A stretch of 53,503 bases of DNA, taken from positions 1 through 53,503 of the IMG/VR virus record IMGVR_UViG_3300032373_000014; one strand, given 5' to 3'. Below the pieces are notes generated by a model. It was not told the DNA's origin, searched no databases, and was given only the letters and a program-made list of their open reading frames with translations. Of the stretch, positions 351 to 52,820 are shown in pieces; positions within the stretch are counted from its first letter, which is position 1, and each line of letters opens with the position of its first letter. The DNA is from a virus (taxonomy: Duplodnaviria > Caudoviricetes). A program made the translations under genes and the position numbers.

Positions 351-383
351 TAACCGACGGGCCTATAAAACTAATCTATACTT

Positions 384-398: not shown

Positions 399-418
399 TA
401 AAACTCATATAAAACGAC

Positions 419-1761: not shown

Positions 1762-1763
1762 CA

Positions 1764-2341: not shown

Positions 2342-2352
2342 TCAGCTTTAAG

Positions 2353-4127: not shown

Positions 4128-4144
4128 ACGCCCCTACCCCCTGT

Positions 4145-20815: not shown

Positions 20816-20826
20816 GACTGTACCTC

Positions 20827-37040: not shown

Positions 37041-37074
37041 AATAACGTCTCCTTTGTTTCGGAAACGTTATTAT
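37039..37074 (-). promoter_or_regulatory. 14-bp mRNA stem-loop occluding the luxI SD and start codon
   Basis: AUAAUAACGUUUCC-GAAACAAA-GGAGACGUUAUUAU(G); fully paired with one G:U. Confidence 0.75.
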
Positions 37075-37122
37075 CAACGGTTTATGACTAGTGCTGTATC
37101 CCCAAATACTGGGACAGAGGTA

Positions 37123-37860
37123 TTATTTTATGAATGGCAGGAACTTAGCAAATGACATCTTAAATGCCGCTTGAGGCACATTCTTTGCCTCAAGCTTCTG
37201 GAGTGCCCGCTTCACATGAGTATCGGTAGACGCCACCCCTCTACCTTGATTTTCCGACACTTTCTTGCGAGTAGCGCCATCCATGATCAATTCTATCATG
37301 GTATCGCGTTCGGTTGGGCTGAGGTCAACGCCGACCGGACTCGGAGCCATTCCAATCTCATGGCTAAAGTGATTTATGTGAATGGAGATGTGGGTCAATA
37401 AATCTTTGTAGGATTCCCACACGTGTTCTGCCTCGTCCTCAGTTCCGAAGAAAGACAAACAGCCCCACTTGCCACTAATGATACCCACAGGAAAATGGCA
37501 TCCGTCCGCCATACCATAATCAGCAGCGCGTTCCATAAAGTGTTCCGCCTGTGGCGACAGGTCCAGCTGTTCTAATTGGGGCTTCCAGCGAAAAGGCGAG
37601 CCGACAGTTGCGGCCAACAAGGAAATAGGATCAATACGGAAATAGCCTTCACGGTCATATTCTTCCATCCATTTCTTAGGCCGGGTGTCTATCTCATCAT
37701 AATGCGCTAGTGAAGAACCAAACCACCACGTGAAACCAGATATCCCAATTTCCCTAGTCAGCTTCCTGAGACAGCGCTCAAGGTTGCCCCGGGTCCTATC
37801 GCGATTCAACGCCGTGGCAAAATTGATAGCGCCTTCTAATGGTTCAATACTATCGGTCAT
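37123..37860 (-). CDS. luxR: LuxR-family AHL receptor/regulator
   Basis: Autoinducer-binding residues W..EY...Y..IDP, PF.W and A.DYG..DG; C-terminal LuxR HTH (LSPTERD...H.K....KL); GGAGG RBS before ATG 37860. Confidence 0.93.
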   Translation of the reverse strand: MTDSIEPLEGAINFATALNRDRTRGNLERCLRKLTREIGISGFTWWFGSSLAHYDEIDTRPKKWMEEYDREGYFRIDPISLLAATVGSPFRWKPQLEQLDLSPQAEHFMERAADYGMADGCHFPVGIISGKWGCLSFFGTEDEAEHVWESYKDLLTHISIHINHFSHEIGMAPSPVGVDLSPTERDTMIELIMDGATRKKVSENQGRGVASTDTHVKRALQKLEAKNVPQAAFKMSFAKFLPFIK

Positions 37861-38023
37861 GAACGAACCTCCAAAGTGAAGATACAACTTTCAGTGCGTC
37901 TTTTCCAACTACATCTATTCCTTTAACGACATTTAAACCATCGTCACGTGATATACATCACGGCTACAGGGACCGACCACTTGTAACATATCGAAGAAGC
38001 AAGTCGGGGAAGGCAGGCTCGAA

Positions 38024-38392
38024 ATGAGTGAGAACACGAGCGCTAAATGTAAAGATATCAATAGACTGATAGGCAGACGTGTGTTTGATGCGCGCCGGAT
38101 GCAGGGAATTGAGCGCACCGACCTAGCGGAACTATTGGGTATTACTAAGCAGCAAATGGGGAAGCTAGAACGTGGCGAGGTCGCGTTTAAAGTTGATCGA
38201 TTGATTGCCGTTGCCGATCACATGGGTATTGCGCCTAGCGTATTTGTTGATAGTCTGAACAGTGAAAATTCCAATGACCATCATGCCGCACTTCTTCATC
38301 TCATTATGGACAAAACTAGCAATGCAGAACTACGGCATATAGAGACTATTTTAAACCTGATGCTTGATCTTCCCGGTCGAAACAGCGATTAA
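38024..38392 (+). CDS. XRE-family transcriptional regulator divergent from luxR
   Basis: IGRR....R...G....DLAELLGIT.QQ..K.ERG. Confidence 0.88.
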   Translation: MSENTSAKCKDINRLIGRRVFDARRMQGIERTDLAELLGITKQQMGKLERGEVAFKVDRLIAVADHMGIAPSVFVDSLNSENSNDHHAALLHLIMDKTSNAELRHIETILNLMLDLPGRNSD

Positions 38393-38489
38393 TTTCGCGA
38401 CTAGTGAAGCCACCCTTCTCTCCTAAACTCCCTATTTCCGTATGAAAAAGACGGCTAAAAACCGCCAGTGTGTGCTGATTAACCCTAAA

Positions 38490-38544
38490 TGTATTCATTT
38501 TGATTACATTTCTGTTGACATTGTTTTCATTTTGAATACATAAT
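38490..38544 (+). promoter_or_regulatory. OL/PL: two 19-bp operators overlapping a sigma70 promoter
   Basis: TGTATTCAtttTGATTACA 38490; TGTTTTCAtttTGAATACA 38522; TTGACA (38515), 18-bp spacer, CATAAT. Confidence 0.85.
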
Positions 38545-38682
38545 ACACCCATAGCAGCGACCAAACGGGCTTTTTACCAACTCTAAGTATCAACGCTCGA
38601 TGGTTCGCCAGCTACCGCAAACACCCGATACAGCCAATAGGCACACCGGGCAGCGGTTTTGAAACGAAATGGGGTACGACAA

Positions 38683-38985
38683 ATGAACGCAGCATTAGAA
38701 CAGTCATTAATTAACGTAGAACTAGCAGGAAACACGGCCCGGCGCCGTCACGCGGAACGCCTTGCACAAACTGTTACTGATCTTGATTTGAAATGCTGGT
38801 TCATGGCAACGCACCCGGACGGAGATTTCCCCTCCGATCCCGAAGAACGCATTAAATTGCTTTTGCCTATCCGAGATTACTTTGCTTCTTCACACAACAG
38901 CCTTGCTTTTCAAAAAGTTGAAGCCGCGATTTGCCGCGAGTTGTTACGAGAGGAAGAACTCAATAGCGCTCGGGAGGCGGCGTAA
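38683..38985 (+). CDS. Hypothetical early protein (first PL gene)
   Basis: GGGG RBS; coupled to the next gene. Confidence 0.7.
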   Translation: MNAALEQSLINVELAGNTARRRHAERLAQTVTDLDLKCWFMATHPDGDFPSDPEERIKLLLPIRDYFASSHNSLAFQKVEAAICRELLREEELNSAREAA

Positions 38986-39305
38986 TGGGCAACGTAATCA
39001 ACATGAACGAATTCAAAGTTTCCTCCCCAGCCCGGAGCGACAGAGGGAAAGCGGCCCCCACCCAATTCCCTCCTGTAACGTCGCTCCGGGTATTGGAGGA
39101 CCGCAATATAGCCGAGGTGAGGATGGCGACCTGTGTGCGTGAGGCCGACGCTCTTTTGAGTGAGGCAAAGCGGCAAGCTGCCATATTACGAACCTTGGAC
39201 GCGCCGCAAGCCGATGCAGCAATGGGCATGCTCATCATGGCACGCAAAAGCGCCCGAACGGCAGTCGAATTAATTCACGGCCCACCACCGAAAATAGGAG
39301 CCTAG
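38985..39305 (+). CDS. Hypothetical early protein
   Basis: GGAGG RBS, TAATG overlap. Confidence 0.7.
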   Translation: MGNVINMNEFKVSSPARSDRGKAAPTQFPPVTSLRVLEDRNIAEVRMATCVREADALLSEAKRQAAILRTLDAPQADAAMGMLIMARKSARTAVELIHGPPPKIGA

Positions 39306-39307
39306 AA

Positions 39308-39547
39308 ATGCACGATCAACAGTCAGTCAACGGGCGAGTTATGCCTTGTTCAGAGGAACGCCGCGCCAGCCAGTTCACGGATATGCAGCAGATGGCGAAG
39401 ATCACGGCCCGCTCCGCATACGGCTATTTGGTCCAGCCGGAATTGTTCAAGGACAACAACATCGACCCTCAAATCAAGGGCGTGCTGCAGTCGATGCAGG
39501 CAAACGCGGAAGACCTTCATGCCCTGATATCAAAGCGTGCGGCATGA
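39308..39547 (+). CDS. Hypothetical early protein
   Basis: AGGAG RBS. Confidence 0.65.
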   Translation: MHDQQSVNGRVMPCSEERRASQFTDMQQMAKITARSAYGYLVQPELFKDNNIDPQIKGVLQSMQANAEDLHALISKRAA

Positions 39548-39681
39548 ACGCCCCCGTTTACATAAACCGGCGCATCAGGCGCTCACGCATGAGCCCGCAC
39601 CGTAAGCGCATGTTGATTGCAGCAGCGGTGAGCTTTGGCTTGGCGGGCGGTTTGCTGGCCCTAGCTGCGGGGATTTTGTGA
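39544..39681 (+). CDS. Small membrane peptide
   Basis: ATGA overlap; basic N-terminus plus TM helix. Confidence 0.55.
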   Translation: MNAPVYINRRIRRSRMSPHRKRMLIAAAVSFGLAGGLLALAAGIL

Positions 39682-40037
39682 TGACCGATACGCAGCACTC
39701 ACCCGCCCCTTGGGCACTAGCCGACAGCATAGTAGCCTACAACCATATCATCGATGCCAACGGTAAGGTGATAGCGAAGATTGAAGGTACAGACAACCCG
39801 CAGGAATGGCTAGCAAACGCCCGCCATATTTCGTCCGCACTCGATACGCATCATGCGTTACTACGCTCTAACGAGCTAATAATTGCGGCCCAAAAAGCAA
39901 TTTGTCTTTACTTGCAACCAACCGGCCCAGATTGGCAGGACCTAGTTGAAGAGCTCATAGAATTATTCGACGGTCCGGCCCAGCGCGAAATTCAATCTGC
40001 CGTAACCGCCGCCCTCAAGAAAGCGAGGGGCGAGTGA
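39678..40037 (+). CDS. Hypothetical phage protein
   Basis: HSPAPW...ANAR.I motif common in phage early genes. Confidence 0.7.
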   Translation: MMTDTQHSPAPWALADSIVAYNHIIDANGKVIAKIEGTDNPQEWLANARHISSALDTHHALLRSNELIIAAQKAICLYLQPTGPDWQDLVEELIELFDGPAQREIQSAVTAALKKARGE

Positions 40038-40237
40038 TGGACAGGGAAGATGTTCAAATATTAACCCAAGAGATTGGCTGCTCAATTCGAGAAGCTAACA
40101 CTTCTTTGCGTGATCAGTTCGCAATGGCAGCGCTTAGCGGGATGCTAGCACATCCTAGAAACCAATGTGACCCCGCCCACGACGTAACCACAGCCTATAA
40201 ATTTGCCGATGCAATGATGATAGCGAGGGGCGAGTGA
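40034..40237 (+). CDS. Hypothetical phage protein
   Basis: LRDQFAMAAL...AY..ADAM...R motif. Confidence 0.75.
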   Translation: MMDREDVQILTQEIGCSIREANTSLRDQFAMAALSGMLAHPRNQCDPAHDVTTAYKFADAMMIARGE

Positions 40238-40638
40238 TGGTTGATAACCAAACCCAAACCAGCCAATTCCGCGCGGTAGTCTTGGCGGCACTCAAGGCAG
40301 ACGCCGTGCTGGGGTTTATGCTTGCTGGCATCTACGACGAAGCGCCCAAAGATGCCAGCTATCCCTATTTGGCTATGGGCGAAACCAACCTGCGAAACGC
40401 CGATACATCCGGGATTAGTATCATGTTTGACCTGATGTTGTGGTCTGATGAAAAGAGCCAAATGCGGGTCAAAGAATTAATGGCTGCAGTGGATACCAGT
40501 CTGGAAGCAGCCGACATTTCCTTGGAAGTGATAACCCTGCGGCTGGTAAGCGCCAGCACAGTGCGCCAATGGAGCGAAGCCGGAAGCCTGTACCGTGGTC
40601 GCCTAAGTTACGATGCCAAGATTACGAGGGCTGCGTGA
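40234..40638 (+). CDS. Second DUF3168 tail-terminator-like protein, in the early operon
   Basis: Aligns by eye with 13093..13506: ADA.L, YDE.P.DA.YP, FD...WS.E.SQM..KEL...VD, RQ....G..YRGR..Y. Confidence 0.8.
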   Translation: MMVDNQTQTSQFRAVVLAALKADAVLGFMLAGIYDEAPKDASYPYLAMGETNLRNADTSGISIMFDLMLWSDEKSQMRVKELMAAVDTSLEAADISLEVITLRLVSASTVRQWSEAGSLYRGRLSYDAKITRAA

Positions 40639-40769
40639 TGAAAAAGCTCACCCTCACCATATTGCTAGGCAGTTCCGCGCTCGCCTCATTTGCATCTGGC
40701 CTGCCTGCACTCGGTTTGTGCCTGGCTGTCGGCTGCTACTTGCTGGTGAGAGGTTTTAAGCATGCTTAA
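40638..40769 (+). CDS. Small hydrophobic peptide
   Basis: MKKLTLTILLG..., coupled to neighbours. Confidence 0.5.
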   Translation: MKKLTLTILLGSSALASFASGLPALGLCLAVGCYLLVRGFKHA

Positions 40770-41089
40770 GCGCCGTACAAGGCCCCGCAGGACCGCGAGA
40801 GACGAGAACGCGCAGCATCGCAAGTATGTTCGAGGTTTCGAGTGTCTGGTGAACAACAGCTACTGCTCTATCCGCATTGAGTGCGCGCATGTTCGAAAAG
40901 GCACCGATGGCGGCATGGGCAAAAAAACCATCCGACAAATATACGGTCCCTCTTTGTGACCATCATCATGACGAGCAACACCGCATCGGGGAAACGACGT
41001 TCTGGAAAACATACAAGATTGATCCGCTGAAAGTGGCCGCCCGCCTGTGGGCGTTGAGCCCTTACGGCAAGAAAAAGGAAGCGGCATGA
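40762..41089 (+). pseudogene. DUF968-like HNH nuclease split by a frameshift
   Basis: CAHVR...GGMGKK in one frame, PSD...VPLC..HH.EQH in another; A7 run at 40921-40927. Confidence 0.7.
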
Positions 41090-42054
41090 CGTTCGTAATC
41101 ACAAAACCCGGAATTTATGACGTGCCCGAGGAAGAATACCACGCCGATCCGGTGCCGTCGCTGTCGCTTAGTAGCAGCGGTGCCAAGAAGATGTATGAGA
41201 AAACGCCCCTACACTACTGGACGGACCGTCGACTAGGGAGCAAGTCAACGTCAGCCCTCAAGTTGGGATCAGCCGCGCACATAGCACTCTTGGAGCCTGA
41301 GCGTTTCGACAAGACCTATTTCGTTATGCCTGAAGGCCTTTCCATGTCTTTTGCTGCAACCAAAGCATTGAAAGAGGAATTTGGCGAAGACGGCGTTAAA
41401 GAGCTAAAGGCAACGGCCAAGTCTGCTAAGGAAATCGGGCAAATTCTCCTATCGTACAAGGATGCCGAAATCGTCAAAGGCATGAAGGAAGGTATGGGCC
41501 GCAAGGAATCCATCCTCTCCAAGTTCATCACTTGCCCAAAGGAGCAATCGGCTTTTTGGTTCGACGATGTGTTTCGCATCTGGCGGCGCGCACGTTTTGA
41601 CTACTTGCCAAATGAGGGCCGGATATTCGCCGACTATAAAACCACCACTGACCTAAGTGATGACGCAATCAACAAGGCAGTCAGTAACTTTGGATGGCAC
41701 CAGCAAGCCGCTTGGTACCTAGACGCCATCAAGGCGCTAGGCCTGCACGACAAGCCTGTTTTCATGTTCATCATGCAGGAGAAAAGCCCACCTTACGAAA
41801 TTAGGTTGGTCGAGCTTGACTATCAATCAATTGCAGACGGTCAGGTCGTGAACGGATGGGCAATGGACCAGTTCGCTCGCGGGATAGAAACTGGCGAATG
41901 GCAAGGCTACCCATCCGCACCCTACATCGCAACGCGCCCGCGGTATGCAGAGACCATTTACGACGCCAAGCAGGAGGCCGGAGACTTTGCCCTCACACAC
42001 CGATTGAAGGCGGAATTTTATCAACCAGAAATACATGAGAAGGAAGCGGCATGA
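41086..42054 (+). CDS. RecE/exonuclease VIII-like PD-(D/E)xK nuclease
   Basis: PGIY.....EYHAD, LSSSG.K, GSAAH...LEP, RARFD, DYKTT, QAAWY. Confidence 0.88.
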   Translation: MTFVITKPGIYDVPEEEYHADPVPSLSLSSSGAKKMYEKTPLHYWTDRRLGSKSTSALKLGSAAHIALLEPERFDKTYFVMPEGLSMSFAATKALKEEFGEDGVKELKATAKSAKEIGQILLSYKDAEIVKGMKEGMGRKESILSKFITCPKEQSAFWFDDVFRIWRRARFDYLPNEGRIFADYKTTTDLSDDAINKAVSNFGWHQQAAWYLDAIKALGLHDKPVFMFIMQEKSPPYEIRLVELDYQSIADGQVVNGWAMDQFARGIETGEWQGYPSAPYIATRPRYAETIYDAKQEAGDFALTHRLKAEFYQPEIHEKEAA

Positions 42055-42992
42055 ACGCTCAAAACCGACAGCAACATACGGTCAAAAATGTAGCGGTATT
42101 AGAGACAGGAAACTCAATCGCAGCGATTGTCCCGGGCAATACAGGGGAAGTATTCCAACTTGCCGGTATCATTGTGAGTTCAGGTATGGCGCCCAAAGGC
42201 ATGAACACGCCGGAGCAAGCGGCTGTAGCCATTTTGACAGGTATGGAAGTTGGTCTCAGCCCTATCCAATCCGTCAACGCAATTGCCGTGATCAACGGTA
42301 GACCAACCATGTGGGGTGATGCCGTATTGGCTCTCGTACAAGGGTCGGGTTTGCTGATCGATATTGAAGAAAAAGTCGTGGGCGAAGGCCAAAGCATGAA
42401 AGCCGTATGCCGGGTTGATAGAAAATCCAGAAAGACAGCTACGGTCAGAGAGTTTTCATACGCCGACGCCCAAAAAGCGAATATTTTAAACAACGCCGTA
42501 TGGAAAACTTACCCGAAGCGCATGATGCAAATGCGCGCGCGTTCAATGGCGCTAAGAGACTGCTTCCCAGACGTCCTTTCGGGCATCCATATGCGCGAGG
42601 AAGTGCAGGATTACAAGCCCCTAGACGAGCCAACTACCGCGGGCGAACCGATAACAATATCGGAGCTTTCCGGCGAAACGCAGGCCGAGGAAGCGCACGA
42701 GAATGAAGACATAACCGACGCCGACATAGTGGAAGAACCGGACACCGATGGCCTAACGCCAGAAGAAGCCACTCAGGCCATTATGGACTTCACAAACGCG
42801 ACAACAAAGATGGAACTAAAAGAGAAATTTGTCGCCATCCGTGATCGCATCGAAGCGATGTCAGAAACGCCATTAAAGATAGCCCTCCGCGACACCTACA
42901 GCAACAGCATGGATGCGTTCAAGCAGGCCGAAGAAGCTGAGGACGATACGCTCCCCGGCGACACGCCAATGAGTGGCGAAATACAGGAATAA
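42051..42992 (+). CDS. recT: RecT-like single-strand annealing protein
   Basis: G.EVGL.P.Q....IAVINGRP..WGD, W..YPKRM...RAR....RD.FPD.L.G. Confidence 0.88.
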   Translation: MNAQNRQQHTVKNVAVLETGNSIAAIVPGNTGEVFQLAGIIVSSGMAPKGMNTPEQAAVAILTGMEVGLSPIQSVNAIAVINGRPTMWGDAVLALVQGSGLLIDIEEKVVGEGQSMKAVCRVDRKSRKTATVREFSYADAQKANILNNAVWKTYPKRMMQMRARSMALRDCFPDVLSGIHMREEVQDYKPLDEPTTAGEPITISELSGETQAEEAHENEDITDADIVEEPDTDGLTPEEATQAIMDFTNATTKMELKEKFVAIRDRIEAMSETPLKIALRDTYSNSMDAFKQAEEAEDDTLPGDTPMSGEIQE

Positions 42993-43114
42993 CCACCAGC
43001 CAGGCAGTGACAACGGGCAAAGGGAAAGAAGCCCCGTTCGAGCCACACATTAAGCCCTACCGCTTCTCATGGCTCCCAGTGATGGCGGTAGGCACAGAGA
43101 CAAAGGAACCCGAC

Positions 43115-43423
43115 ATGAGAAACAGCCCCGACCCCATAGACGTTTTCGTAGGTCAGCGAGTACGCGACCGCAGGAAAGAAACCGGCTTATCGCAAACGCA
43201 ACTCGGCAAAGAGATTGGCGTCACCTTTCAGCAGATCCAGAAGTATGAAAAAGGCACCAACCGGATGGGCTCAAGCCGTTTGGTCCGTATAGGCCGCACT
43301 CTAGGTATTCCCGTTTCGTACTTCTTTGAAGGCCTGCCGGGTAACGACAACAGCGCTGAAACGCCTTTGGATAAAGCCCGACGCCTTTCAACCGAATTGT
43401 CCCTTGCGCTCAAGGCTGCTTGA
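43115..43423 (+). CDS. XRE-family regulator
   Basis: D..VG.R.R.RR...GLSQ..LG..IGVTFQQIQKYEKGTNR. Confidence 0.92.
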   Translation: MRNSPDPIDVFVGQRVRDRRKETGLSQTQLGKEIGVTFQQIQKYEKGTNRMGSSRLVRIGRTLGIPVSYFFEGLPGNDNSAETPLDKARRLSTELSLALKAA

Positions 43424-43499
43424 GCCAAGCGCGAGGCGGGCTAACCCGCACCTAAGCCACTAGGCGAGGCCCGCCTTGCCGCTGAATGAAAGAAGCGAA

Positions 43500-45782
43500 A
43501 TGAACGTCACACCAATAACAACAATCCGCGAAATCCGACACGGCCACCTGTTCTGCGGTCTCGGTGGCGGCGCTCGTGGCTTCAACCGAGCCGCCCCGCG
43601 CGTCGGCAACATGCAAGCCAAGTTCGTTTGTGCAGGCGGCATCGATAGCGACCCTGGTGCAATCCGTAATTTCGAGCGAATGGCAGGCACGAAGGGTACG
43701 CTCATGGACCTATTCGACCGCCAGCAATACATAGATTTTCACGGCCAAGAACCGGGGAACGACTGGCGCGAGGCAATACCTGCGGACATTCACAAAGTCT
43801 TCGGCCCTGCCCTCGACATTGTGTTCCTTTCAGCGCCGTGTAAGGGCTTTTCCGGCCTCCTATCCTCGACAAAATCGAAAACCGACAAGTACCAGGCGCT
43901 GAACCGTCTAACTCTTCGTGGCGTTTGGTTGATGCTCGAAGCCTACAAAAACGAACCGATCCCGGTCGTACTCTTCGAGAATGTTCCACGAATTTTGACG
44001 CGCGGTAAATGGCTGCTTGACCAAATTTCAGCGCTATTTCGCTCCTACGGCTACAGCGTGAACCTAGACACGCACGACTGCGGCGTTATCGGCAACCTCG
44101 CACAAAGCCGCAAGCGCGCACTACTGATCGCTCGCCACATAGAGAAGGTTCCTCCTTTCATCTACCAGCCTCGCGAGCACAAGCTGCGCGGTGTGGGCGA
44201 GGTGATCGGCAAGCTACCGCTCCCCGGAGACCCGATTGCTGGCTCCATGCACCGCGTGCCGTCGCTTCAATGGAAAACGTGGTTGCGTCTTGCCCTAGTG
44301 CCGGCAGGTAAGGACTGGCGTGCTCTCAATGACCTTACCGTTGTCGACGGAAACTTGCGCGACTACGGTATCGTGCCAGAGGTGCCTTTGCGCGAGAACG
44401 CGCTCGGCGTGAATGACTGGTCCGACACCGCCCCTGTCATCACCACGCACCGCGCGCCCGGGCAAGGCCGGTTTTCAGTTGCCGACCCTCGATACGCTTC
44501 AACCTTTGAAGGAGCTGGCCCCTACGGAGTGGAGGATTGGAAGGAACCCGCAAAAGCGATAAGGGGAGCCAACCGCCCCGGCAATGGCACCTTTAGCGTG
44601 GCGGACCCTCGTTACGGCGATCGTGACCGCGACAGCACGTTGGGTGTGAAAGAGTGGGACGCGCCAAGCGGTACTGTGCAGGCGAAGAGTGGGCCGACAA
44701 ATGGAGCCTTCTCGGTCGCAGATCCCCGCCCTCCTGAGAAAGCCAATCAGACCTATAAGCAATATGGTGTGAATAACTGGAAAGAGACGGCAGGCACTGT
44801 CTCAGGTCAATCCGGGCCTGGTGGTGGCGCTCATTCCATTGCCGACCCGCGTATTCCTGGCAAGCCGCGTTTCAATAACGTCTTTCGTATCGTGCCTTTC
44901 GACGGCACTTCACCTGCCATAGCTGGCCCCGGTGGTCCTGCTGGTGGTGTCGCCGTCGCTGATCCGCGCAATCACGGTCACGAGCAAACATCTAACAAGT
45001 ACAGAGTGACCCCGTTTGATGGCGTTAGCCGAACCGTTTTAGGTGCCAGCACCACGGGCGACGGTGCTTTTGCCGTAGCGGACCCTAGACCTAATTGGGG
45101 CAATCAGCGGCACTCAAACATTTTGCGCGTCACCAAATATGACGAAGCGGCCGGCACAATTGCCGCCAATGCCCACGGCGTGACGGGCGGGAAACCTTGT
45201 GTTGCCGATGCTCGGCGCGAGAATTACCAAACTGGCGGGCATTATGGCGTCGTTGATTGGGACCAAAACGCCTATGCGGTCAGCGGTTCCGCTTGCCACG
45301 ATAACGGGTTTAATTCTGTAGCCGACCCCCGCGATGCTATTCTGGAAGCCGACCAAATTGCGACGCCAGCGCCAAAAGATCGCCTTATATGCCGCATCAT
45401 TGCAACTGACGACACATGGCACCGCCCTTTTACGACATTAGACCTAGCCGCGCTGCAGTCCCTTTTCGAGCCCGAAGAAGTCTTTTTCCAAGAGGAAACC
45501 GAGCTGGGGAATATCTGGCGCTGCCATGCCCCATTCGACCTAGAAGCAAGCAGCGACGTGACGAAGCGCGAATGGATTGGCAACATGGTCCCGGGCGCCG
45601 CCGCCACTGGTATTGCCGACACGATAGGCGAAACCATCCTCCTTGCCGAACAGGGCGAGTCCTTCTTTCTCAGCATGCGCGAAATCTGGGCCAAGCCGGG
45701 CGCTCTTGCCTTATCCGTCGACAACGATCAGCTGGCATTTCGTATTGATAGTAACGAAGCGATCTCGGAGGACGCAGCATGA
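43500..45782 (+). CDS. DNA cytosine-5 methyltransferase with internal tandem repeats
   Basis: HLFCGLGG, APCKGFS, FENVP, Q.RKR and WIGN motifs; eight ADPR-type repeats. Confidence 0.9.
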   Translation: MNVTPITTIREIRHGHLFCGLGGGARGFNRAAPRVGNMQAKFVCAGGIDSDPGAIRNFERMAGTKGTLMDLFDRQQYIDFHGQEPGNDWREAIPADIHKVFGPALDIVFLSAPCKGFSGLLSSTKSKTDKYQALNRLTLRGVWLMLEAYKNEPIPVVLFENVPRILTRGKWLLDQISALFRSYGYSVNLDTHDCGVIGNLAQSRKRALLIARHIEKVPPFIYQPREHKLRGVGEVIGKLPLPGDPIAGSMHRVPSLQWKTWLRLALVPAGKDWRALNDLTVVDGNLRDYGIVPEVPLRENALGVNDWSDTAPVITTHRAPGQGRFSVADPRYASTFEGAGPYGVEDWKEPAKAIRGANRPGNGTFSVADPRYGDRDRDSTLGVKEWDAPSGTVQAKSGPTNGAFSVADPRPPEKANQTYKQYGVNNWKETAGTVSGQSGPGGGAHSIADPRIPGKPRFNNVFRIVPFDGTSPAIAGPGGPAGGVAVADPRNHGHEQTSNKYRVTPFDGVSRTVLGASTTGDGAFAVADPRPNWGNQRHSNILRVTKYDEAAGTIAANAHGVTGGKPCVADARRENYQTGGHYGVVDWDQNAYAVSGSACHDNGFNSVADPRDAILEADQIATPAPKDRLICRIIATDDTWHRPFTTLDLAALQSLFEPEEVFFQEETELGNIWRCHAPFDLEASSDVTKREWIGNMVPGAAATGIADTIGETILLAEQGESFFLSMREIWAKPGALALSVDNDQLAFRIDSNEAISEDAA

Positions 45783-45793
45783 CCAGATCGTCA

Positions 45794-46000
45794 TCAGTTG
45801 GCAGCCGCGATCCGGCGAAGCCTTACAATACCTCCGCCATGATGGCCGCCGTTCGGATAATCCTTTACCCATTTGCAGCCGGTACCGGGCTCGTCATAAA
45901 ACTGCGTCCATCCATCAGACGTGGACGAAGTGTGCTCAAGGCTCGACTTTACAAAATCAATGGCATCGCGCCCTTCGAGAAGCTTGTCATATTCAACCAT
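45794..46000 (-). CDS. Imm27-like orphan immunity protein
   Basis: GW...Y..P..G..W...YP....HGGG...L motif. Confidence 0.65.
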   Translation of the reverse strand: MVEYDKLLEGRDAIDFVKSSLEHTSSTSDGWTQFYDEPGTGCKWVKDYPNGGHHGGGIVRLRRIAAAN

Positions 46001-46015
46001 TTGTCAAAGCCTTCG

Positions 46016-46372
46016 TCATCTGTTGTCAGGCTTGCCCTTGAACCAATCGATCAATGTCTTGAAAAACGGCGTGCCAGTTTTTGGGCTGTAGGTTTTGCGG
46101 CCTTCAGCAGTATTATTAAGTTCCCACACACTTTGAATTTCGTTGGCATCAACGGCATCTATGATTTCTTGCAGCGTAGCCACAGAAACGCTGGCGTCAA
46201 AATATCGCAAACGAAAAACACCCTTGGCAGTGGTCTCATTGGAGCAGCCGACGCATTCGAGGTCGTGTTCTTCAGTGAAGATATCATCGAACCAGTCTTC
46301 GATTTCGTCATCGTCAAATCTGACGATGGTAAAACCGTCACGTTCCTCAACCCAGATATGCGTATCAACCAC
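46016..46372 (-). CDS. Acidic hypothetical protein
   Basis: 118 aa, GGGA RBS, cassette-like context. Confidence 0.75.
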   Translation of the reverse strand: MVDTHIWVEERDGFTIVRFDDDEIEDWFDDIFTEEHDLECVGCSNETTAKGVFRLRYFDASVSVATLQEIIDAVDANEIQSVWELNNTAEGRKTYSPKTGTPFFKTLIDWFKGKPDNR

Positions 46373-46390
46373 ATTTATCCCCGTTCGTCG

Positions 46391-46744
46391 TCAGTTGTCA
46401 TACCAAATATAATAAGACAGGCCTACGCTCAAGATAGTGAAGATCAGCGCGGCGATTGTGAGGCGAAGATTTCTCTTCCGGTCAAGGGCAGCCTTCCGTG
46501 CTCGCGCATACCCGGCATAAAGCGTGACAGTTCTACCAAATTCTTCTGGCTGAGAATGCCAGCCGTCTGGTGTATCAATCCGCTTACCTTCGGTAACGTG
46601 GAGCTGTATAAGAACTTCAACAGGTTTGCCCTCCAGGTGTTCACGCACAAGATCTCTATATTTGGTGTGGTAAGTGGACAAAAGCTCATCCCATTCACTT
46701 TGGTGAAGTGGGGTGTTCCGGTACTTGTTTTTGCTAAACTGCAT
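46391..46744 (-). CDS. Hypothetical protein with C-terminal TM helix
   Basis: 117 aa; ends LTIAALIFTILSVGLSYYIW. Confidence 0.75.
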   Translation of the reverse strand: MQFSKNKYRNTPLHQSEWDELLSTYHTKYRDLVREHLEGKPVEVLIQLHVTEGKRIDTPDGWHSQPEEFGRTVTLYAGYARARKAALDRKRNLRLTIAALIFTILSVGLSYYIWYDN

Positions 46745-46762
46745 TACCTAGTGTCCCTGTCG

Positions 46763-47239
46763 TCAGTTGTTAGCCCAGCGCCTAAGCTGTGTAACATAAA
46801 GCCTTACCTCTGTGGCTTTTTCGTCCAGCATTTTGATAACCGGCCTAGCCGCATCTATGCCTGTAAAGTCGGGCACGTTAGGCTCGGAGCGTATTACCTC
46901 GTTCATCTGGTCAATATCAGCCTTAAATCTACGCACCGTTTGATGAAAACCGATGACAAATTCAGCTCCCGGCCCAAAAAGATGTATTTCATGGGTTATC
47001 GCGTCGATATAGGTGGCGTCAGGTTCAAAGCGGAAACCGATTCTGGTCAGCTTCTCCATATTTTCAAACTGTTCGGCCAGTGCGGATATTGCCAGAAGGT
47101 CCCTCTCAAGGGCATCAGCCAGCAGGAGCGCCATTTGCTTTATCCGCTTTGCTTCGCTGTCTCTTTCGTGGCGTCTTCCAAGCCAAAACGTCAACCAGCA
47201 CGCCATTACCGCCACAGCAACTTGGATCAGCCACTCCAC
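46763..47239 (-). CDS. Hypothetical protein with N-terminal TM helix
   Basis: 158 aa; GTG start after AGGGGG. Confidence 0.75.
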   Translation of the reverse strand: MEWLIQVAVAVMACWLTFWLGRRHERDSEAKRIKQMALLLADALERDLLAISALAEQFENMEKLTRIGFRFEPDATYIDAITHEIHLFGPGAEFVIGFHQTVRRFKADIDQMNEVIRSEPNVPDFTGIDAARPVIKMLDEKATEVRLYVTQLRRWANN

Positions 47240-47422
47240 GATCTATCCCCCTATGCGTTTTATAGCCTTGGTCTGCGCGTCACTGCGCGAGCGGCATATC
47301 AACAAAACCCATCTTCGCAGAGGTTTCGTGGAGGGTCAAATTCTGGAAGTTGTCACCCTTTGTTGACAGCCAGCAAAGCAGCCTTCGATTGGGGGTCGAG
47401 TAGATTGGCCGCCCTGCTGACC
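47240..47422 (-). ncRNA. Candidate structured RNA leader of the antisense block
   Basis: 16-bp stem 47422-47407/47383-47368 with five G:U pairs; ~10-bp stem 47367-47358/47307-47298; GNRA-type loops. Confidence 0.5.
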
Positions 47423-47428
47423 GCACGC

Positions 47429-47457
47429 AGTCTGAACCCACTTCATGATTTAGTCAA
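47429..47457 (-). promoter_or_regulatory. Sigma70-type promoter for the antisense block
   Basis: TTGACT, 17-bp spacer, CAGACT; predicted +1 coincides with the start of the first stem. Confidence 0.6.
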
Positions 47458-47477
47458 ACAACAGCGGAGGCTCTGCC

Positions 47478-47840
47478 ATGCCTAAACGAGTACAGCGGAA
47501 ACGCACCAGGGGCTACAAGCTGCCAGTTGGCGCTGTCTACGTAGGAAGGCCCAGCAAGTGGGGCAACCCGTTTAAAGCGGAAAAGGGCAAGGCTTGTGGG
47601 TGCCGCTCGGCTGGTGAATGCACGCACGGCGGCATGACAGCGCAGGAAGCTGTGGATTTGTACCGTGAAATTTCCCTGCCTGCCAAAATTAAAATACGGG
47701 GCCACGACATCGAAGAATTAAGAGGCAAAGACCTTGCCTGTTGGTGTCCACTGGATCAGCCCTGCCATGCAGATGTGCTGCTTGTGGCTGCCAACTTCAC
47801 CTCACCCCCCACCTCAACAGGAGGCTCAGATGCAGAGTGA
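47478..47840 (+). CDS. DUF4326 family protein
   Basis: P.RVQR.R..G...P.GAVYVGRPSKWGNPF, LRGKDLACWCP...PCHADVL. Confidence 0.9.
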   Translation: MPKRVQRKRTRGYKLPVGAVYVGRPSKWGNPFKAEKGKACGCRSAGECTHGGMTAQEAVDLYREISLPAKIKIRGHDIEELRGKDLACWCPLDQPCHADVLLVAANFTSPPTSTGGSDAE

Positions 47841-48210
47841 AGAATTAGCGCGGACCATTGATACCATCATCAGTGTGGTCGTCATTCCAAGTGAAAACCA
47901 AGGCGTGGCCGAAGAAGCACTTGGCACCTTTTTGAGCCAGTTACGGGCCAACCGACTTGATATTGTCCCGATGGCGGAACCACCCATTGAATGCTTCGCC
48001 TGTGACGGTGACGGCCAGCATTATACCTTGGGCGATGATTACGCCGATTGTGACCTTTGCAAAGGCACAGGTGAGACAACCCAAAAGGCCACCGACGAAT
48101 GGTGCCGGGTGCCTGAAGGAACCACACTCAGCGAGCCTATTGAGGGTATTGACCCGCTGATTGGTGAAGCTGACGAAAGACGCCCTTCAACAGGACAGGA
48201 GAAAATCTAA
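47830..48210 (+). CDS. Hypothetical protein with DnaJ-type CxxCxGxG zinc motifs
   Basis: CFACDGDG and CDLCKGTG; AGGAGG RBS. Confidence 0.7.
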   Translation: MQSEELARTIDTIISVVVIPSENQGVAEEALGTFLSQLRANRLDIVPMAEPPIECFACDGDGQHYTLGDDYADCDLCKGTGETTQKATDEWCRVPEGTTLSEPIEGIDPLIGEADERRPSTGQEKI

Positions 48211-48557
48211 TGCTTCCATGGCCCAAAATGACCTCAGAGCAGAAGGCGGAAGCAGCCCGGAAGGATGACATTTGTGACCAGCTTGTTCCATCAGATATTC
48301 GATCAATGTTGTCTGAAACCAGAAAGCTCAGAGAAGCGTTGCTCAACATCATCGAAGCGGTGGTGCTTGATCACCCGCTTAATGGTGACGAGATTGATGA
48401 TGATCTATTTTCTGACGTTAAAGATTGGCATGGCGAACCGTTTGCTAAGCTTATTTATGACGCTTGGCTGTTAGTTAGGCCATCATTCCAAAACAAGACG
48501 CTGGTTGATGTTCTCAATGAGAGAGCCAACAAATCCCATGAAGGTAGCAGCCCATGA
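48210..48557 (+). CDS. Hypothetical protein
   Basis: AGGAG RBS, TAATG overlap. Confidence 0.7.
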   Translation: MLPWPKMTSEQKAEAARKDDICDQLVPSDIRSMLSETRKLREALLNIIEAVVLDHPLNGDEIDDDLFSDVKDWHGEPFAKLIYDAWLLVRPSFQNKTLVDVLNERANKSHEGSSP

Positions 48558-48934
48558 GTTCAACCCCTGCATTCCTTAAAGATGGCATGTACTTGCCGCC
48601 TGCTATTCGCGACTTTCATGACTGCAAAGACGCGTTCAAGGCAATGATACCAATGCTTGAGAATTATAAGAAGCAGCCACATGCCCGCAACCTTCCCGAC
48701 GTTAGCTGGGTAGATGCACAGTGCCTGACCATTGATGTGGTCTTGTGGTTCTTCGCAATGCATGGGTACACGCTCCAGCGGATACCAAAAAAGAGGCGTG
48801 AAGCGCTCGGCTGTATCGAGCTTGAAAAGAGCATTGATGAAGATCGCGAAATGCGGCTTTCCATTATGGGCGCGGTCATCTTTGGAAACAGTGACAAGAG
48901 TCGCCCAAATCCCAACAACGGAGAGAAATCATGA
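48554..48934 (+). CDS. Conserved phage protein
   Basis: YLP...RDFHD.KD.FK and W..A.HGYTLQR motifs. Confidence 0.75.
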   Translation: MSSTPAFLKDGMYLPPAIRDFHDCKDAFKAMIPMLENYKKQPHARNLPDVSWVDAQCLTIDVVLWFFAMHGYTLQRIPKKRREALGCIELEKSIDEDREMRLSIMGAVIFGNSDKSRPNPNNGEKS

Positions 48935-49332
48935 GCACAGCAAAGGTTGTTACCATTTGCGGTTCATCGCGCTTTATTGAGTTTGTGGCTGTGACTGCGT
49001 GGCTTTTAGAGCGCGATGAAGGTGCCATTACCATGAGTATGCACCTGCTGCCCAACTGGTACCCAGATTGCAAATCAGACCACATGGCGGAGCATGAAGG
49101 TGTTGCCGTTGATATGGATGCCCTGCACCTCAAAAAAATAGAAATGTCAGACGAGATTTTCGTCGTTGATTATAGCGAATATGTGGGCCGCAGCACTGCC
49201 AACGAAATCGCGTATGCGGGCGAGCTTGGTAAGCCGGTTCGGTATTTCAGCCAAGACCCACTTGGCGCGAAAATATTAACCATGCTGCCAGATGGCATCA
49301 AACGCCCTTCAACCAACGGGAGCGAAAAATGA
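48931..49332 (+). CDS. Nucleoside-deoxyribosyltransferase-like (DUF4406-like) protein
   Basis: VVTICGS.RF, H..KI.MSDEIFV....YVG.ST..EI.YA...GKPV. Confidence 0.65.
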   Translation: MSTAKVVTICGSSRFIEFVAVTAWLLERDEGAITMSMHLLPNWYPDCKSDHMAEHEGVAVDMDALHLKKIEMSDEIFVVDYSEYVGRSTANEIAYAGELGKPVRYFSQDPLGAKILTMLPDGIKRPSTNGSEK

Positions 49333-49571
49333 AAAACAAACTCGGCGATCTAAATAACCACCTGTTTGCTCAAATCGAGCGCCTATCGGACGAAGACCTA
49401 AGTGTGGAGGAAATCAAAAAGGAAGTCACCCGCGCCAGCGCTGTCGTTGGCGTTGCGGACACGATAATTAGAAATGCTGACGTGCAAATCAAAGGCCTAG
49501 CGCTAATGGTTAAAGATGGCAGACCCTTTGTTGAAGGCATGTTGCCAATGATCGAGGGGCCTAAAAAATGA
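49329..49571 (+). CDS. Conserved phage protein
   Basis: MKNKL.DLNNHLFAQ.ERL.DE motif, typically found before HNH genes. Confidence 0.8.
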   Translation: MKNKLGDLNNHLFAQIERLSDEDLSVEEIKKEVTRASAVVGVADTIIRNADVQIKGLALMVKDGRPFVEGMLPMIEGPKK

Positions 49572-50224
49572 AGGGTCACAAGATCAACTGGAAACCGGAT
49601 GAGTTATCCTGGATCGAGGCACACCGCGATATGGAGCGCCCAGCCGCCCACAAGTTGTTTTGCGAAACCTTCAATCGCAGTGACATTGCTTTGGGCGCAT
49701 ACGCTTCTCTATGCAAGCGCAAGGGCTGGCTAACAGGTAGAACCGGTCAGTATGGCAAAGGGCACGATCCAGCAAACAAAGGCAAGAAGATGCCATTCAA
49801 TGCCAACAGCGCCAAAACGCAGTTCAAGAAGGGGCACCTTGGCGGAAAAGCAAAGGATAAATACAAACCAATTGGAACCGAACGGCTCAGCAAAGATGGC
49901 TATTTAGAGCGCAAAATACATGACGGGCTGCCACGGCAGTCTCGATGGCGCGCCGTCCATCTGGTACGCTGGGAAGAGGATAATGGCCCCATTCCAAAGG
50001 GACACTGCCTTAAATGTATGGATGGCAATAAGTCGAACACTGACCCCTCAAACTGGACTTGTATATCTCGCGCTCTTTTGCCGAGGCTTGCTGGCCGATG
50101 GTCAACTCCCTACGACAGCGCGCCGGCTGAAATAAAGCCAACAATTCTAGCCGTCGCAGAACTCGCACACGCGGCCAAGTCAGCAACTGACGAAAGACGC
50201 CAATCAGTTGGAGGTACCAAATGA
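49568..50224 (+). CDS. HNH endonuclease
   Basis: FKKG, PIGTER..KDGY, H...WE...GPIP.G......DGNK.N....N. Confidence 0.85.
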   Translation: MKGHKINWKPDELSWIEAHRDMERPAAHKLFCETFNRSDIALGAYASLCKRKGWLTGRTGQYGKGHDPANKGKKMPFNANSAKTQFKKGHLGGKAKDKYKPIGTERLSKDGYLERKIHDGLPRQSRWRAVHLVRWEEDNGPIPKGHCLKCMDGNKSNTDPSNWTCISRALLPRLAGRWSTPYDSAPAEIKPTILAVAELAHAAKSATDERRQSVGGTK

Positions 50225-50394
50225 TACTTACAATCGCGTTGTCCGACCAGACCGCAGAGCATGTGAAGGCTATTTCTGAGAATATCCAAGAGCCGCCAGA
50301 GGAAACAGCTACCAAGCTGCTTGAGCAAGGCCTTGTGCATCTGCTGTTTTGTGCTGACGAAAGACGCCAATCACCTGACCAGGAGAAAACCTGA
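50221..50394 (+). CDS. 57-aa hypothetical protein (not in the ORF track)
   Basis: Hand-translated MILTIALSDQTAEHVKAISENIQEPPEETATKLLEQGLVHLLFCADERRQSPDQEKT; GGAGG RBS; bracketed by the 20-bp repeat. Confidence 0.65.
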   Translation: MILTIALSDQTAEHVKAISENIQEPPEETATKLLEQGLVHLLFCADERRQSPDQEKT

Positions 50395-50891
50395 TGCTTG
50401 ATTTCCCTATTTATGATGACATTGACAGCCCGCTCGGAGGTCTCATGTTTCTTGGTCACGACGTAGACCCGAAGGCTGACGATGTGCGCGGCCAGATCAT
50501 CCAATCAATCACCGATGCCGCGAGCATGGCGTGGGTATTTGAAGCGAGGCCTGATGAATGTGGGGCTGTTGTCGCTCAGATTTTGGCGCTTATGGAGGCC
50601 CGTAACGATCATTGCCGGCACAAGATTTTGCGCTGTGATGATGACGGCAATGACTTGCCTGACGTTCACTTTGGGCTAACCGGAGATATTCCTGATGAAC
50701 ATGACGGAAATGAAGAGAATTGCAGCTACGACTTTTGCTCGGCAACAAATGAATTTGCCCAAGCTGTCACGGTCTTTGATTGGAGTGGTGATGTAGCCGA
50801 TGAGGCCAACGCAATCCATAACAATCTCTGGTCTGAGGAAGTGGCAAAAAAGCTCGGCAACAAGGGCCAGGAAGGTAACAGCGATGCCTAA
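50394..50891 (+). CDS. Acidic hypothetical protein
   Basis: AGGAG RBS, TGATG overlap. Confidence 0.7.
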   Translation: MLDFPIYDDIDSPLGGLMFLGHDVDPKADDVRGQIIQSITDAASMAWVFEARPDECGAVVAQILALMEARNDHCRHKILRCDDDGNDLPDVHFGLTGDIPDEHDGNEENCSYDFCSATNEFAQAVTVFDWSGDVADEANAIHNNLWSEEVAKKLGNKGQEGNSDA

Positions 50892-51090
50892 ATATGTGAT
50901 CGATGTGAAGTGCGAAGCACACAAAACGGTACTGGTTGAAGCGTCTTCAAAAAGCGAGGCGCGCAAGATCGCCGTCACTCCTTTTGCCAACATTGAAACA
51001 ACCGCTTGGGGTGTGGGTTTGCCAATCTCATGTGGCCCTGCTTACGAACAGGCCAACACATCCCAATCAGTTGGCGGCCCGGATGACTGA
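50884..51090 (+). CDS. Hypothetical protein
   Basis: MPKYVIDV.....V.VEA.S..EA motif. Confidence 0.65.
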   Translation: MPKYVIDVKCEAHKTVLVEASSKSEARKIAVTPFANIETTAWGVGLPISCGPAYEQANTSQSVGGPDD

Positions 51091-51301
51091 GCCGCCAAAA
51101 ACCACATGTGGCTTCTGCGGAAAATCCTTCGTATCGAACCACAAAGGCAAACAAGCTCCGAGACGGTATTGCACGGACCCATGCCGGATAAACAAGCACA
51201 AAGTAGCCAGCCATATAGGGGAGAGGGTCGTCGAATCCATGCCTGCAGCCGCACGGATGGCGTATGTAGCAGAACTTCCTAAATTGACGGGAGCGAATTA
51301 A
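51083..51301 (+). CDS. Small zinc-finger protein
   Basis: CGFCGKSF.......RRYCTDPCR. Confidence 0.65.
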   Translation: MTEPPKTTCGFCGKSFVSNHKGKQAPRRYCTDPCRINKHKVASHIGERVVESMPAAARMAYVAELPKLTGAN

Positions 51302-51591
51302 TGCCTGATATTCACCAACTGACCAGAAAGCTGACACGCGCAATCCAACGCGGCAAGGGAACACGGATGACACCCGATGACCTTGAAATATTGGCCCAAG
51401 AAGGCTGTCTGGAGTTGCTGTTCAAACGCCAAGCGGAAGAACTTAAATGTCGGAGCACGAGTACCAAGTCGGAAAATACTGGCTCGCAAGAGACAAAGAA
51501 GGTGGTCCCTATAAGATCAACTGGTACGACGAAGGAAAGAGAAAGGTCAGGCGAAAGACTACTGGCTCAAAAGACCTTCAGCGGGCAATAG
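51301..51591 (+). CDS. Small protein overlapping the int start (candidate excisionase)
   Basis: GGGAG RBS, TAATG overlap; position immediately before the integrase. Confidence 0.5.
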   Translation: MPDIHQLTRKLTRAIQRGKGTRMTPDDLEILAQEGCLELLFKRQAEELKCRSTSTKSENTGSQETKKVVPIRSTGTTKERERSGERLLAQKTFSGQ

Positions 51592-52727
51592 AAGTCATCA
51601 CAGGGCACCACATTGCCCAACTAGAGCCAGACGTAGAAGCCGGAATTACCGTTCGTCAGGTATCACTAAAATACTGGTTCGAACACGCCCAGCACCTTGT
51701 TTCAAACAGCACACCAAGAGCTTCATTTTCTAAATTAGACAAGTTTTTGCTCGAATTTGAGGGTGATGGCCCTCAGATGTTGGCTGAGGAGTGGACCAAA
51801 GAAACAACCAAGAAGCTGATCAAATGGATGAGGGACAACCCTGCCTACTCGGAACGCTCCGTCAAAGATGAGGAAGGGACCGTAATAGAAGTGGTCCGCA
51901 CACCTCGGCCCTGCAGCGACAAGGCCATCAACAGGCACATTGACGACATAAGGGCTGCGTTCCGTTATTGTATGGATCGCCCGCCGATCATTCAGGGAAT
52001 TCAGGGAGCGGAAACCCGGCAAGGTCGGAAAAAACCGACACTTTCCATTGACCAGGTGAAGAAGTTGTTCGCGTATGCCCACGAAAAACCCGAACGGCGC
52101 CACCTACAGAATTATCTCGTACTTGCCATAACAACGCTTGGCAGGCCCGAAGCATTGATCGACGTCAGTGTCGAACCTGAACGCGGGCAAATCGAATGGG
52201 ATTACCGCCGCCTTCATCTGAACCCAGAAGGTAGAAAGCAAACGAAAAAGCACCGACCTATAGTTCCGATCAACGACTATCTTTTGCCAATTATTCAGGA
52301 TAGCAGCGCCCGCTATGAAGCCTCACGGATCGGTAGCGGACAGAAGTCCAGCGGGTACATAGTTGAATACAAGGGGAAGCCGGTTGCTGGAATGCGCCAA
52401 ACATGGAACCGGGCAAAGACCGCTCTTGGATGGCCGGTCGGCGGGGATATTGGGAGGGATTGGGACATCAAAATGCTACGGCATACAATGTCAAAGTACT
52501 TGCGGGCGCAGGGGGTGCCTTGGCCGGAGTTGCAAGGACATCTCGGTCATAGCATCAAAGGCCAGACCGAAACATACGCCGAGTACGATCCCAAATATAT
52601 GGGTCACGTACAGGCTGAAATCACTCGATTTATGGGGCTTATTTTTGAAGGCCAGAAATGGGCTTGCACCCCACTTGCACCCCACCTGGCAGCAAGCGTT
52701 GTTTCACTTCAGTCTAAAAACATTTGA
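51447..52727 (+). CDS. int: Tyrosine integrase
   Basis: TLGRPEA (R), TKKHRP (K), LRHT, LGH and TYAEY catalytic motifs; adjacent to att. Confidence 0.93.
   Translation: MSEHEYQVGKYWLARDKEGGPYKINWYDEGKRKVRRKTTGSKDLQRAIEVITGHHIAQLEPDVEAGITVRQVSLKYWFEHAQHLVSNSTPRASFSKLDKFLLEFEGDGPQMLAEEWTKETTKKLIKWMRDNPAYSERSVKDEEGTVIEVVRTPRPCSDKAINRHIDDIRAAFRYCMDRPPIIQGIQGAETRQGRKKPTLSIDQVKKLFAYAHEKPERRHLQNYLVLAITTLGRPEALIDVSVEPERGQIEWDYRRLHLNPEGRKQTKKHRPIVPINDYLLPIIQDSSARYEASRIGSGQKSSGYIVEYKGKPVAGMRQTWNRAKTALGWPVGGDIGRDWDIKMLRHTMSKYLRAQGVPWPELQGHLGHSIKGQTETYAEYDPKYMGHVQAEITRFMGLIFEGQKWACTPLAPHLAASVVSLQSKNI
52664..52690 (+). repeat. Arm-type repeat copy inside the int 3' end
   Basis: Identical to 324..350 (27 bp). 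Confidence 0.75.
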
Positions 52728-52739: not shown

Positions 52740-52791
52740 TTAAATGGTGGTCGGTACTGGACTCGAACCAGCGACCTCGTCGATGTCAACG
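52740..52791 (+). repeat. att core, right copy
   Basis: Identical to 182..233. Confidence 0.97.
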
Positions 52792-52820
52792 ACGCGCTCT
52801 ACCAACTGAGCTAACCGACC
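52745..52820 (-). tRNA. tRNA-Val (GAC)
   Basis: GGTCGGTTAGCTCAGTTGGTAGAGCGCGTCGTTGACATCGACGAGGTCGCTGGTTCGAGTCCAGTACCGACCACCA; 76-nt cloverleaf with encoded CCA. Confidence 0.98.

Follow-up and report, generated by a model that had tools for sequence, protein, structure and literature searches.

Why does one plus-strand reading frame of a phage early operon stay open for 568 codons across four genes that are encoded on the opposite strand? The question is raised by the viral contig IMGVR_UViG_3300032373_000014 (Duplodnaviria; Caudoviricetes), which was analyzed whole (53,503 nucleotides, GC content 51%; hereafter the window) and in which four small minus-strand genes (45794–47239) lie between the plus-strand genes for a C5 cytosine DNA methyltransferase and a DUF4326 protein. 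The reading that we favor, at about even odds (a probability of roughly 0.5), is that these genes form a moron-like block in a noncontiguous-operon arrangement and that the strand opposite to them is kept open so that it can be translated through, with a benefit that would lie in escape from Rho-dependent termination or in preserved translational coupling. Operons that are broken by backward genes are already known; the bridging open frame over them would be the new part.

The bridging open reading frame (ORF; 45779–47485, plus strand) has 568 codons and no internal stop, and the other two plus frames across the block contain 21 and 28 stops. A Shine-Dalgarno-like site, GGAGG (45767–45771, plus strand), can be read 7 nt before its ATG at 45779. 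This ATG overlaps the methyltransferase stop codon (TGA, 45780–45782) as ATGA, and the TAA of the bridging ORF (47483–47485) overlaps the ATG of the DUF4326 gene at 47478 by 8 nt. All four minus-strand ORFs share a single codon register with the bridging ORF (triplet starts equal 2 mod 3, by arithmetic on the ORF coordinates). An earlier interpretation of this stretch, made from its letters alone (the sequence-only reading), had described the open frame with its ribosome-binding site (RBS) and both overlaps, as well as the exact register of the four genes, and the coordinates confirm each of these features.

In this register, TTA, CTA and TCA codons of the minus genes would read as stops on the plus strand. 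None of the 461 codons of the four genes is one of them, against 483 of 16,403 (2.94%) in 86 ORFs of the contig, which bears out the earlier statement that these codons are absent over about 460 codons. When the proteins are held fixed and the codons are resampled from the synonymous usage of the phage, 11.9 stops are expected and none is observed (P(0) = 1.5e-6); resampling with the usage of low-GC genes gave the same result. As an internal control, CTA and TCA account for 0 of 44 CTN/TCN codons, whereas among the 157 codons of six other four-fold families 27 end in A (Fisher P = 7.4e-4), and TTA accounts for 0 of 5 TTR codons. GTA (7) and ATA (8) are freely used in the minus genes, and a general RNY or TA-avoidance bias was rejected as the cause, since GTA, ATA and other YNR codons are in use. 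The sequence-only reading had proposed computing the stop frequency expected from the codon usage of the phage and had cautioned that in-register antisense frames can stay open through codon bias alone; with the frequency now computed, the resampling and the control place the frame far beyond such bias. The 98 non-coding codons of the spacers and the leader are open as well (P ~0.025).

The minus genes are the real genes, on the evidence of third-position substitutions, Pfam and codon likelihood. Comparison of gene 4 with its homologue on the metagenome contig L081, a single sequence pair (gene 4 and L081 gene A), gave 58, 34 and 97 differences at minus codon positions 1, 2 and 3, respectively, out of 159, and this pattern indicates purifying selection on the minus protein. 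The two minus proteins are 56.6% identical, as opposed to 30.8% for the in-register plus translations, and the corresponding BLOSUM sums are 499 and 206. Codon likelihood favored the minus sense in four of four genes, by 0.07–0.15 nat per codon versus 0.285 ± 0.06 (minimum 0.19) in other phage genes. The 568-aa plus product is not conserved: it belongs to no family of Pfam or PHROG, a search that scored 8000 candidates (predicted proteins of 312–994 aa) yielded no homologue, and the first/third-position statistic of the plus ORF is shadow-like (G1-C3 = -0.069). With real genes on the minus strand and an unconserved product on the plus strand, openness, not a protein, seems to be what is kept. 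A minus-strand read-through polyprotein was considered separately and rejected, as junction 4 contains a TAG.

The ends of the minus genes are marked by a repeated motif. The sequence TCGTCRTCWGTTG occurs exactly at 45788, 46013 and 46385, and a fourth copy, at 46757, has two mismatches. Matches with at most two mismatches number 14, whereas shuffled sequences contain 3.4 ± 1.8, and none of 100 shuffles has as many as 14. Read on the minus strand, the motif is CAAC-TGA-YGA-CGA, about 13 nt long, and extends across each stop codon; it is followed by an RBS-like run of G, and the next start lies 15–18 nt on, the spacers between the minus genes being 18, 18 and 15 nt. Copy 1, CAACTGATGACGA (45788–45800, minus strand, as are the others), spans the stop of gene 1. 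In copy 2, CAACAGATGACGA (46013–46025), the first TGA is mutated to AGA, and gene 2 therefore stops one codon later. Copy 3, CAACTGACGACGA (46385–46397), spans the stop of gene 3, and copy 4, CAACTGACGACAG (46757–46769), which carries the two mismatches, spans that of gene 4. The claim that each gene ends at the motif thus holds with exact copies for three genes and only loosely for gene 4, and the spacings between copies (225, 372 and 372) are indeed multiples of 3.

Over 2.3 Mb of fetched loci, the motif is found at the rate of chance (19 matches, 17.7 expected), and within these loci motif arrays occur only in the window and in L081. A scan of viral contigs for motif pairs yielded 94 stretches; among the 80 listed there were 51 pairs, 41 of them with 3n spacing. 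Nearly all the listed pairs fall within repeats in the coding sequence of low-GC contigs, away from ORF ends, for which reason they were rejected as further arrays. Two phage loci, L228 (8600–10700, minus strand) and L193 (8100–9950, plus strand), contain small genes that end in ...EDN, ...ENN or ...NN and overlap the next start via AACTGATGAC (TGATG; the next protein begins MT...). Such stop/start overlaps of other phages may be the origin of the junction motif. The likeness lies in the letters, which in those loci end one small gene (...DN and stop) and start the next (MT...). The difference is that there the ATG of the motif is itself the next start and the spacing is 3n+1 or 3n+2 (374, 367), whereas in the window the next start lies 15–18 nt on, in the same frame.

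The sole relative that was found, the distant L081, was recovered with a back-translated pattern of invariant gene-4 residues. It encodes the gene-4 homologue P0004 exactly (gene A), behind a leader that aligns in conserved blocks with 47240–47477 of the window (minus strand), where the minus operon has its leader and putative promoter. The conserved blocks are a -35-like TTGACT (47452–47457), which is conserved as TTGACW between the two leaders, CTCGACCCCCAATCG (47386–47400), and an RBS-proximal block (47247–47271). The leader of the window is also open in the plus frame, and an 81-codon leader is open in both loci. The plus frame in which a conserved leader block is read differs between the window and L081, so the shared feature is openness, not a peptide. 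Downstream of gene A the genes differ from those of the window: gene B has a signal-peptide-like N-terminus, gene C encodes a CxxC protein, and no family was found for either. Gene A ends with CAACTGATGAC and gene B with CAACTGATGAT; these motif copies, at 796 and 1171, are 375 nt apart, and a degenerate copy follows gene C at 1432, a further 261 nt on. The motif common to the window and L081 is CAACTGAYGA.

In the register of genes A and B, the antisense frame of L081 contains three stops (383, 470 and 806, all TAG) in 463 codons, whereas the other two antisense frames contain 12 and 27. Gene C does not interrupt it, even though C lies in another frame and has six TTA/CTA/TCA codons among its 75. 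The frame stops at TAG 77–79, directly before GTG 74 / ATG 65–67 of an ORF in the same direction that the contig end truncates; no proof was obtained that this left-end ORF is hutG. The co-directional gene on the other side of the array is hutI. The idea that related loci carry other cassettes under the same 3n and open-frame rule finds partial support: L081 has other cassettes, the motif, 3n spacing and a stop-poor frame, and it also has the three TAG codons and a P value of only ~0.04–0.05. Reassignment of TAG in L081 was rejected, as TAG also ends hutI and gene C. By our reading, the array sits beside chromosomal histidine-utilization genes, with an imidazolonepropionase-like ORF and a divergent formimidoylglutamate-deiminase-like ORF at 1541–3762, and so is not confined to an intact phage early operon. 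A search with hutI returned 80 loci at ~60% identity, in many of which the gene directly after hutI starts within ~20 nt.

Under the reading that we favor, a foreign, lower-GC operon of four small genes (one for an Imm27 protein, two for putative membrane proteins and one for an acidic protein) would lie backwards inside a coupled early operon, and its genes, spacers and leader would be kept stop-free in one frame of the opposite strand. Ribosomes would enter this frame by ATGA coupling at the methyltransferase stop and leave it on the DUF4326 start. Those on the early transcript could thereby cross the 1.7-kb antisense stretch without release, provided that the plus frame is translated. Untranslated RNA is subject to Rho polarity. 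Left untranslated, the stretch would presumably meet Rho-dependent termination, or coupling would be lost, before the downstream early genes and int are reached. The plus peptide itself would probably be irrelevant, and the ~13-nt junction motif, together with 3n unit lengths, may serve to hold every cassette in phase.

Several observations weigh against this reading. As this case comes out of a very large scan, its conservative P values need a multiple-testing discount, and the common register of the four genes may come in part from the fixed 15/18-nt junction module, which would make it less than fully independent evidence. A consensus scan of the block found neither a promoter nor a terminator, and the plus-strand RNA is only mildly C-rich (C/G 0.8–1.8 per 100 nt). 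In L081, the single relative, the antisense frame is broken by the three TAG codons; resampling of genes A–C gives a weak signal (2 stops versus ~6 expected, P = 0.044–0.049), and the internal control for genes A and B is not significant (2/14 versus 34/106, P = 0.14). The host is probably proteobacterial, to judge from the LuxI/LuxR genes of the window and the relatives of its capsid.

Chance together with codon bias would explain the frame if no antisense frame is easier to keep open than the in-register one and a single case of 568 codons surfaced from a very large scan. Long in-register shadows do exist. The major capsid gene of the window (19499–20830) has only two TTA/CTA/TCA codons in 438, with a 328-aa in-register plus-strand shadow ORF opposite, so strong codon bias alone can yield long shadows in this genome. 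L169, which was retrieved only for motif letters in its repeats, has a 2027-codon ORF (3–6083, plus strand, 47% GC) with a 728-codon in-register antisense open run (49% GC there). More generally, 3.04 Mb of fetched loci contain 2212 long open runs, and 309 of them have at least two in-register antisense ORFs. These, however, are mostly at GC of at least 0.6, and only five of the 309, this block included, are at GC of at most 0.52. The low P values of the block (1.5e-6 or 7.4e-4) concern the coding part alone, at 47–49% GC; to them are added the openness of the non-coding codons (0.025), the shared register (1/27), a start and an end that are both coupled, and the partial replication in L081. 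Chance looks unlikely even after the scan is discounted for, once the coupled start and end are added, and we regard this explanation as quite improbable. The frame might instead be a by-product of array building, in which a fixed module of 15 or 18 nt that joins the cassettes (the motif with an RBS) sets the frame, openness has a historical or other cause, such as an origin in a different context, and translation of the plus strand is absent or immaterial. The spacers are of the right kind for such a module, with lengths of 18, 18 and 15 nt in the window and again 18 nt at the first junction of L081, homologues preserve both the motif and the C-terminal Asn (the gene-2 homologue P0002 ends in ...SDN and P0004 in ...HNN), and the L081 array persists despite three interruptions of its frame. 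The module accounts for the register but not for the total lack of stop-complement codons (0/461), for the open 81-codon leader in both loci, for the ATGA/GGAGG start and the end-on-start layout, or for a frame in L081 that is open over the out-of-register gene C, and on balance we find it unlikely.

Dual coding, with the 568-aa plus ORF as a true overlapping gene for a functional protein in addition to the four minus genes, is the explanation for which we see very little room. The ORF has a good RBS, a coupled start and 568 uninterrupted codons, and for Pseudomonas aeruginosa there is a report of translation from antisense ORFs as long as 957 and 1536 nt (PMC8850804). The low codon likelihood of the minus genes (0.07–0.15 versus 0.285) is what either dual constraint or foreign origin would give. 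A functional plus protein is nevertheless hard to reconcile with a product that lacks a Pfam or PHROG family and any homologue among the 312–994 aa proteins, with the poor conservation of the antisense translation (30.8% identity, BLOSUM 206 versus 499) and variation mostly at minus position 3, not 1, with a negative G1-C3 statistic, and with an L081 version that is in pieces, over different cassettes. The favored reading of a bridged moron-like block also has a wider form, in which the window and L081 would represent a rare class of phase-locked arrays: 3n cassettes with CAAC-TGA-YGA-CGA would have one antisense frame purged of stops, ribosomes would cross the 'bridge ORF' and reinitiate on the next gene, and the motif would be a point of in-phase recombination for the exchange of cassettes. 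Noncontiguous operons would in this way escape polarity in bacteria that couple transcription to translation. This generalization is possible, and we put it forward only tentatively.

The closest known arrangement is the noncontiguous operon or excludon (Saenz-Lahoya et al. 2019), in which one or more opposite-strand genes part the co-directional genes of an operon. The sources describe four cases in phage 80alpha and one chromosomal case with three antisense genes, and term the operon mRNA over the antisense gene an internal untranslated region (PMC11034616, PMC7154746). One of them treats the persistence of transcription across the untranslated stretch as puzzling and offers uncoupling in Firmicutes as the answer (PMC11034616). 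The window resembles these operons in that the minus block (45794–47239) has co-directional plus genes on both flanks, as known here from sequence. It differs in that a single coupled ORF, probably in a proteobacterial phage, extends over the stretch, which is untranslated in the cases described there. In the passages returned by a full-text literature search, no paper describing such a bridging ORF turned up. Long antisense overlapping genes include those of P. aeruginosa (PMC8850804) and HIV-1 asp (PMC8156140) and have been reviewed (PMC7457138). They share with the bridging ORF a long in-register frame, openness beyond codon-usage expectation and the same synonymous-resampling argument. In contrast, the claim made for those genes is of a selected functional protein within one gene, whereas here the frame covers four unrelated genes, spacers and a leader, and its peptide is unconserved.

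The antisense block is a compositionally distinct accessory unit between phage genes, with GC of 0.467–0.493 over 45850–47199 versus 0.54–0.63 over 43300–45849 and 0.58 at 47350–47649. Phage morons, in the work of Juhala and Hendrix, are reportedly lysogenic-conversion units that lie between phage genes. Like them, the block consists of small accessory genes (immunity, membrane) with GC below that of the flanks and its own conserved leader, located between conserved phage genes. Unlike them, it has no recognizable terminator or consensus promoter, and its four genes form an array in which a junction motif recurs and which is phase-locked to an ORF on the opposite strand. Integron cassettes are each followed by an attC site, an imperfect inverted repeat of ~55–140 nt. 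Like an integron, the block is a promoter-proximal series of short, unrelated genes without promoters of their own; the set of genes differs from locus to locus downstream of a conserved 5' portion, and a short sequence is conserved at the 3' end of each cassette. The sequence-only reading had called the array integron-like, which does not hold in the strict sense: the repeat search found no attC-like inverted repeat at the junctions, where the spacers are only 15–18 nt, the array is flanked by the methyltransferase and DUF4326 genes with neither an adjacent IntI integrase nor attI, and the motif spans the stop codon. The sole PF00589 protein (tyrosine recombinase) of the window is encoded at 51447–52727, 4 kb from the array, beside a tRNA-Val fragment.

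The four genes have few relatives. Gene 1 (45794–46000, minus strand, 68 aa) encodes a member of the Imm27 immunity-protein family (PF15590, E = 1.5e-8; 34.8 bits, above the gathering cutoff of 27.3, with profile positions 6–66 of 67 covered) and by itself contains no TTA, CTA or TCA. Among 24 window proteins scanned against Pfam, none showed a toxin domain. Gene 2 (46016–46372, minus strand, 118 aa) encodes an acidic protein of no family, with the homologue P0002 at 85% identity; its structure model is poor (pLDDT 43.7) and unfit for structure searching, and an Atlas look-up returned unnamed clusters only. Gene 3 (46391–46744, minus strand, 117 aa) has a hydrophobic C-terminal segment, as judged by eye, with no family and no relatives found. 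Gene 4 (46763–47239, minus strand, 158 aa), the first gene of the minus operon, has a hydrophobic N-terminal segment and the 57% homologue P0004. The homologues of genes 2 and 4 are full-length and of the same length. The products of genes 3 and 4 are putative membrane proteins. Searches of the four minus genes against PADLOC, PHROGs and NCBIfam gave no match, none of the defence-system models matched them, and Rfam returned only a sub-threshold miRNA match.

Searches for further relatives gave little. Neither gene 4 nor the methyltransferase found a relative in viral contigs, where the leader-block pattern and the back-translated gene-4 pattern also had no matches. The gene-4 alignment gave 281 pattern matches in genome contigs, and that of gene 2 gave 595 in metagenome contigs and 52 in viral contigs, none of them confirmed. 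There was no tblastn match of gene 4 to phages or plasmids, blastn of the block region against phages found short DUF4326 matches only, and 80 DUF4326 loci had no other block genes in common with the window. Two loci from the gene-3 search were rejected as relatives because the match was local and small-terminase-like. A gene-4 profile run against 1.84 billion representatives found only P0004 and two long proteins with partial matches.

In the window, the minus strand carries the structural genes, up to ~34.9 kb, and a string of plus-strand genes (38024–52727) encodes a helix-turn-helix (HTH) protein, a PDDEXK DUF3799 protein, RecT, a second HTH protein, the C5 methyltransferase, the DUF4326 protein, an HNH protein and the tyrosine integrase. 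Overlaps of 1, 4 or 8 nt occur at ~12 junctions between plus genes of the string (from ORF coordinates), so the string looks translationally coupled. The methyltransferase gene (43476–45782, plus strand, 768 aa) matches PF00145 (E = 1.1e-10) over the first ~224 of its 768 residues only and scores below the cutoff of TIGR00675; in the rest of the translation a short ...(F/V)(S/A)(V/I)ADPR... motif can be read in ~8 copies, one every ~40–50 aa. The DUF4326 gene (47478–47840, plus strand; PF14216, E = 2e-22; phrog_464) has its own GGAGG at 47465–47469. Just upstream of the integrase gene, a plus ORF (50936–51301, 121 aa) and a minus ORF (50975–51373, 132 aa) oppose each other in one codon register within 50936–51373, and Pfam has no family for either. 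The string ends with the integrase gene, which is followed directly by a tRNA-Val(GAC) gene or fragment (52745–52820, minus strand), probably an attachment-site remnant. A LuxI/LuxR quorum-sensing pair (36396–37887, minus strand) is located just upstream of the early region and consists of an autoinducer synthase (PF00765, E = 2.8e-24) adjoining a LuxR-type autoinducer-binding protein (PF03472, E = 4.3e-21). The closest phage relatives of the capsid protein, from Pseudomonas and enterobacterial phages, are less than 50% identical to it.

If the favored reading is true, a bridging ORF that is kept open by synonymous codons would be a simple, sequence-level answer to the puzzle of how noncontiguous operons are crossed. 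What selection preserves would then be the capacity to be translated and not a protein. Such bridges could be searched for by a testable signature, an antisense frame that is open, in register and coupled at both ends, and some of the long 'shadow ORFs' that annotation pipelines drop would be functional.

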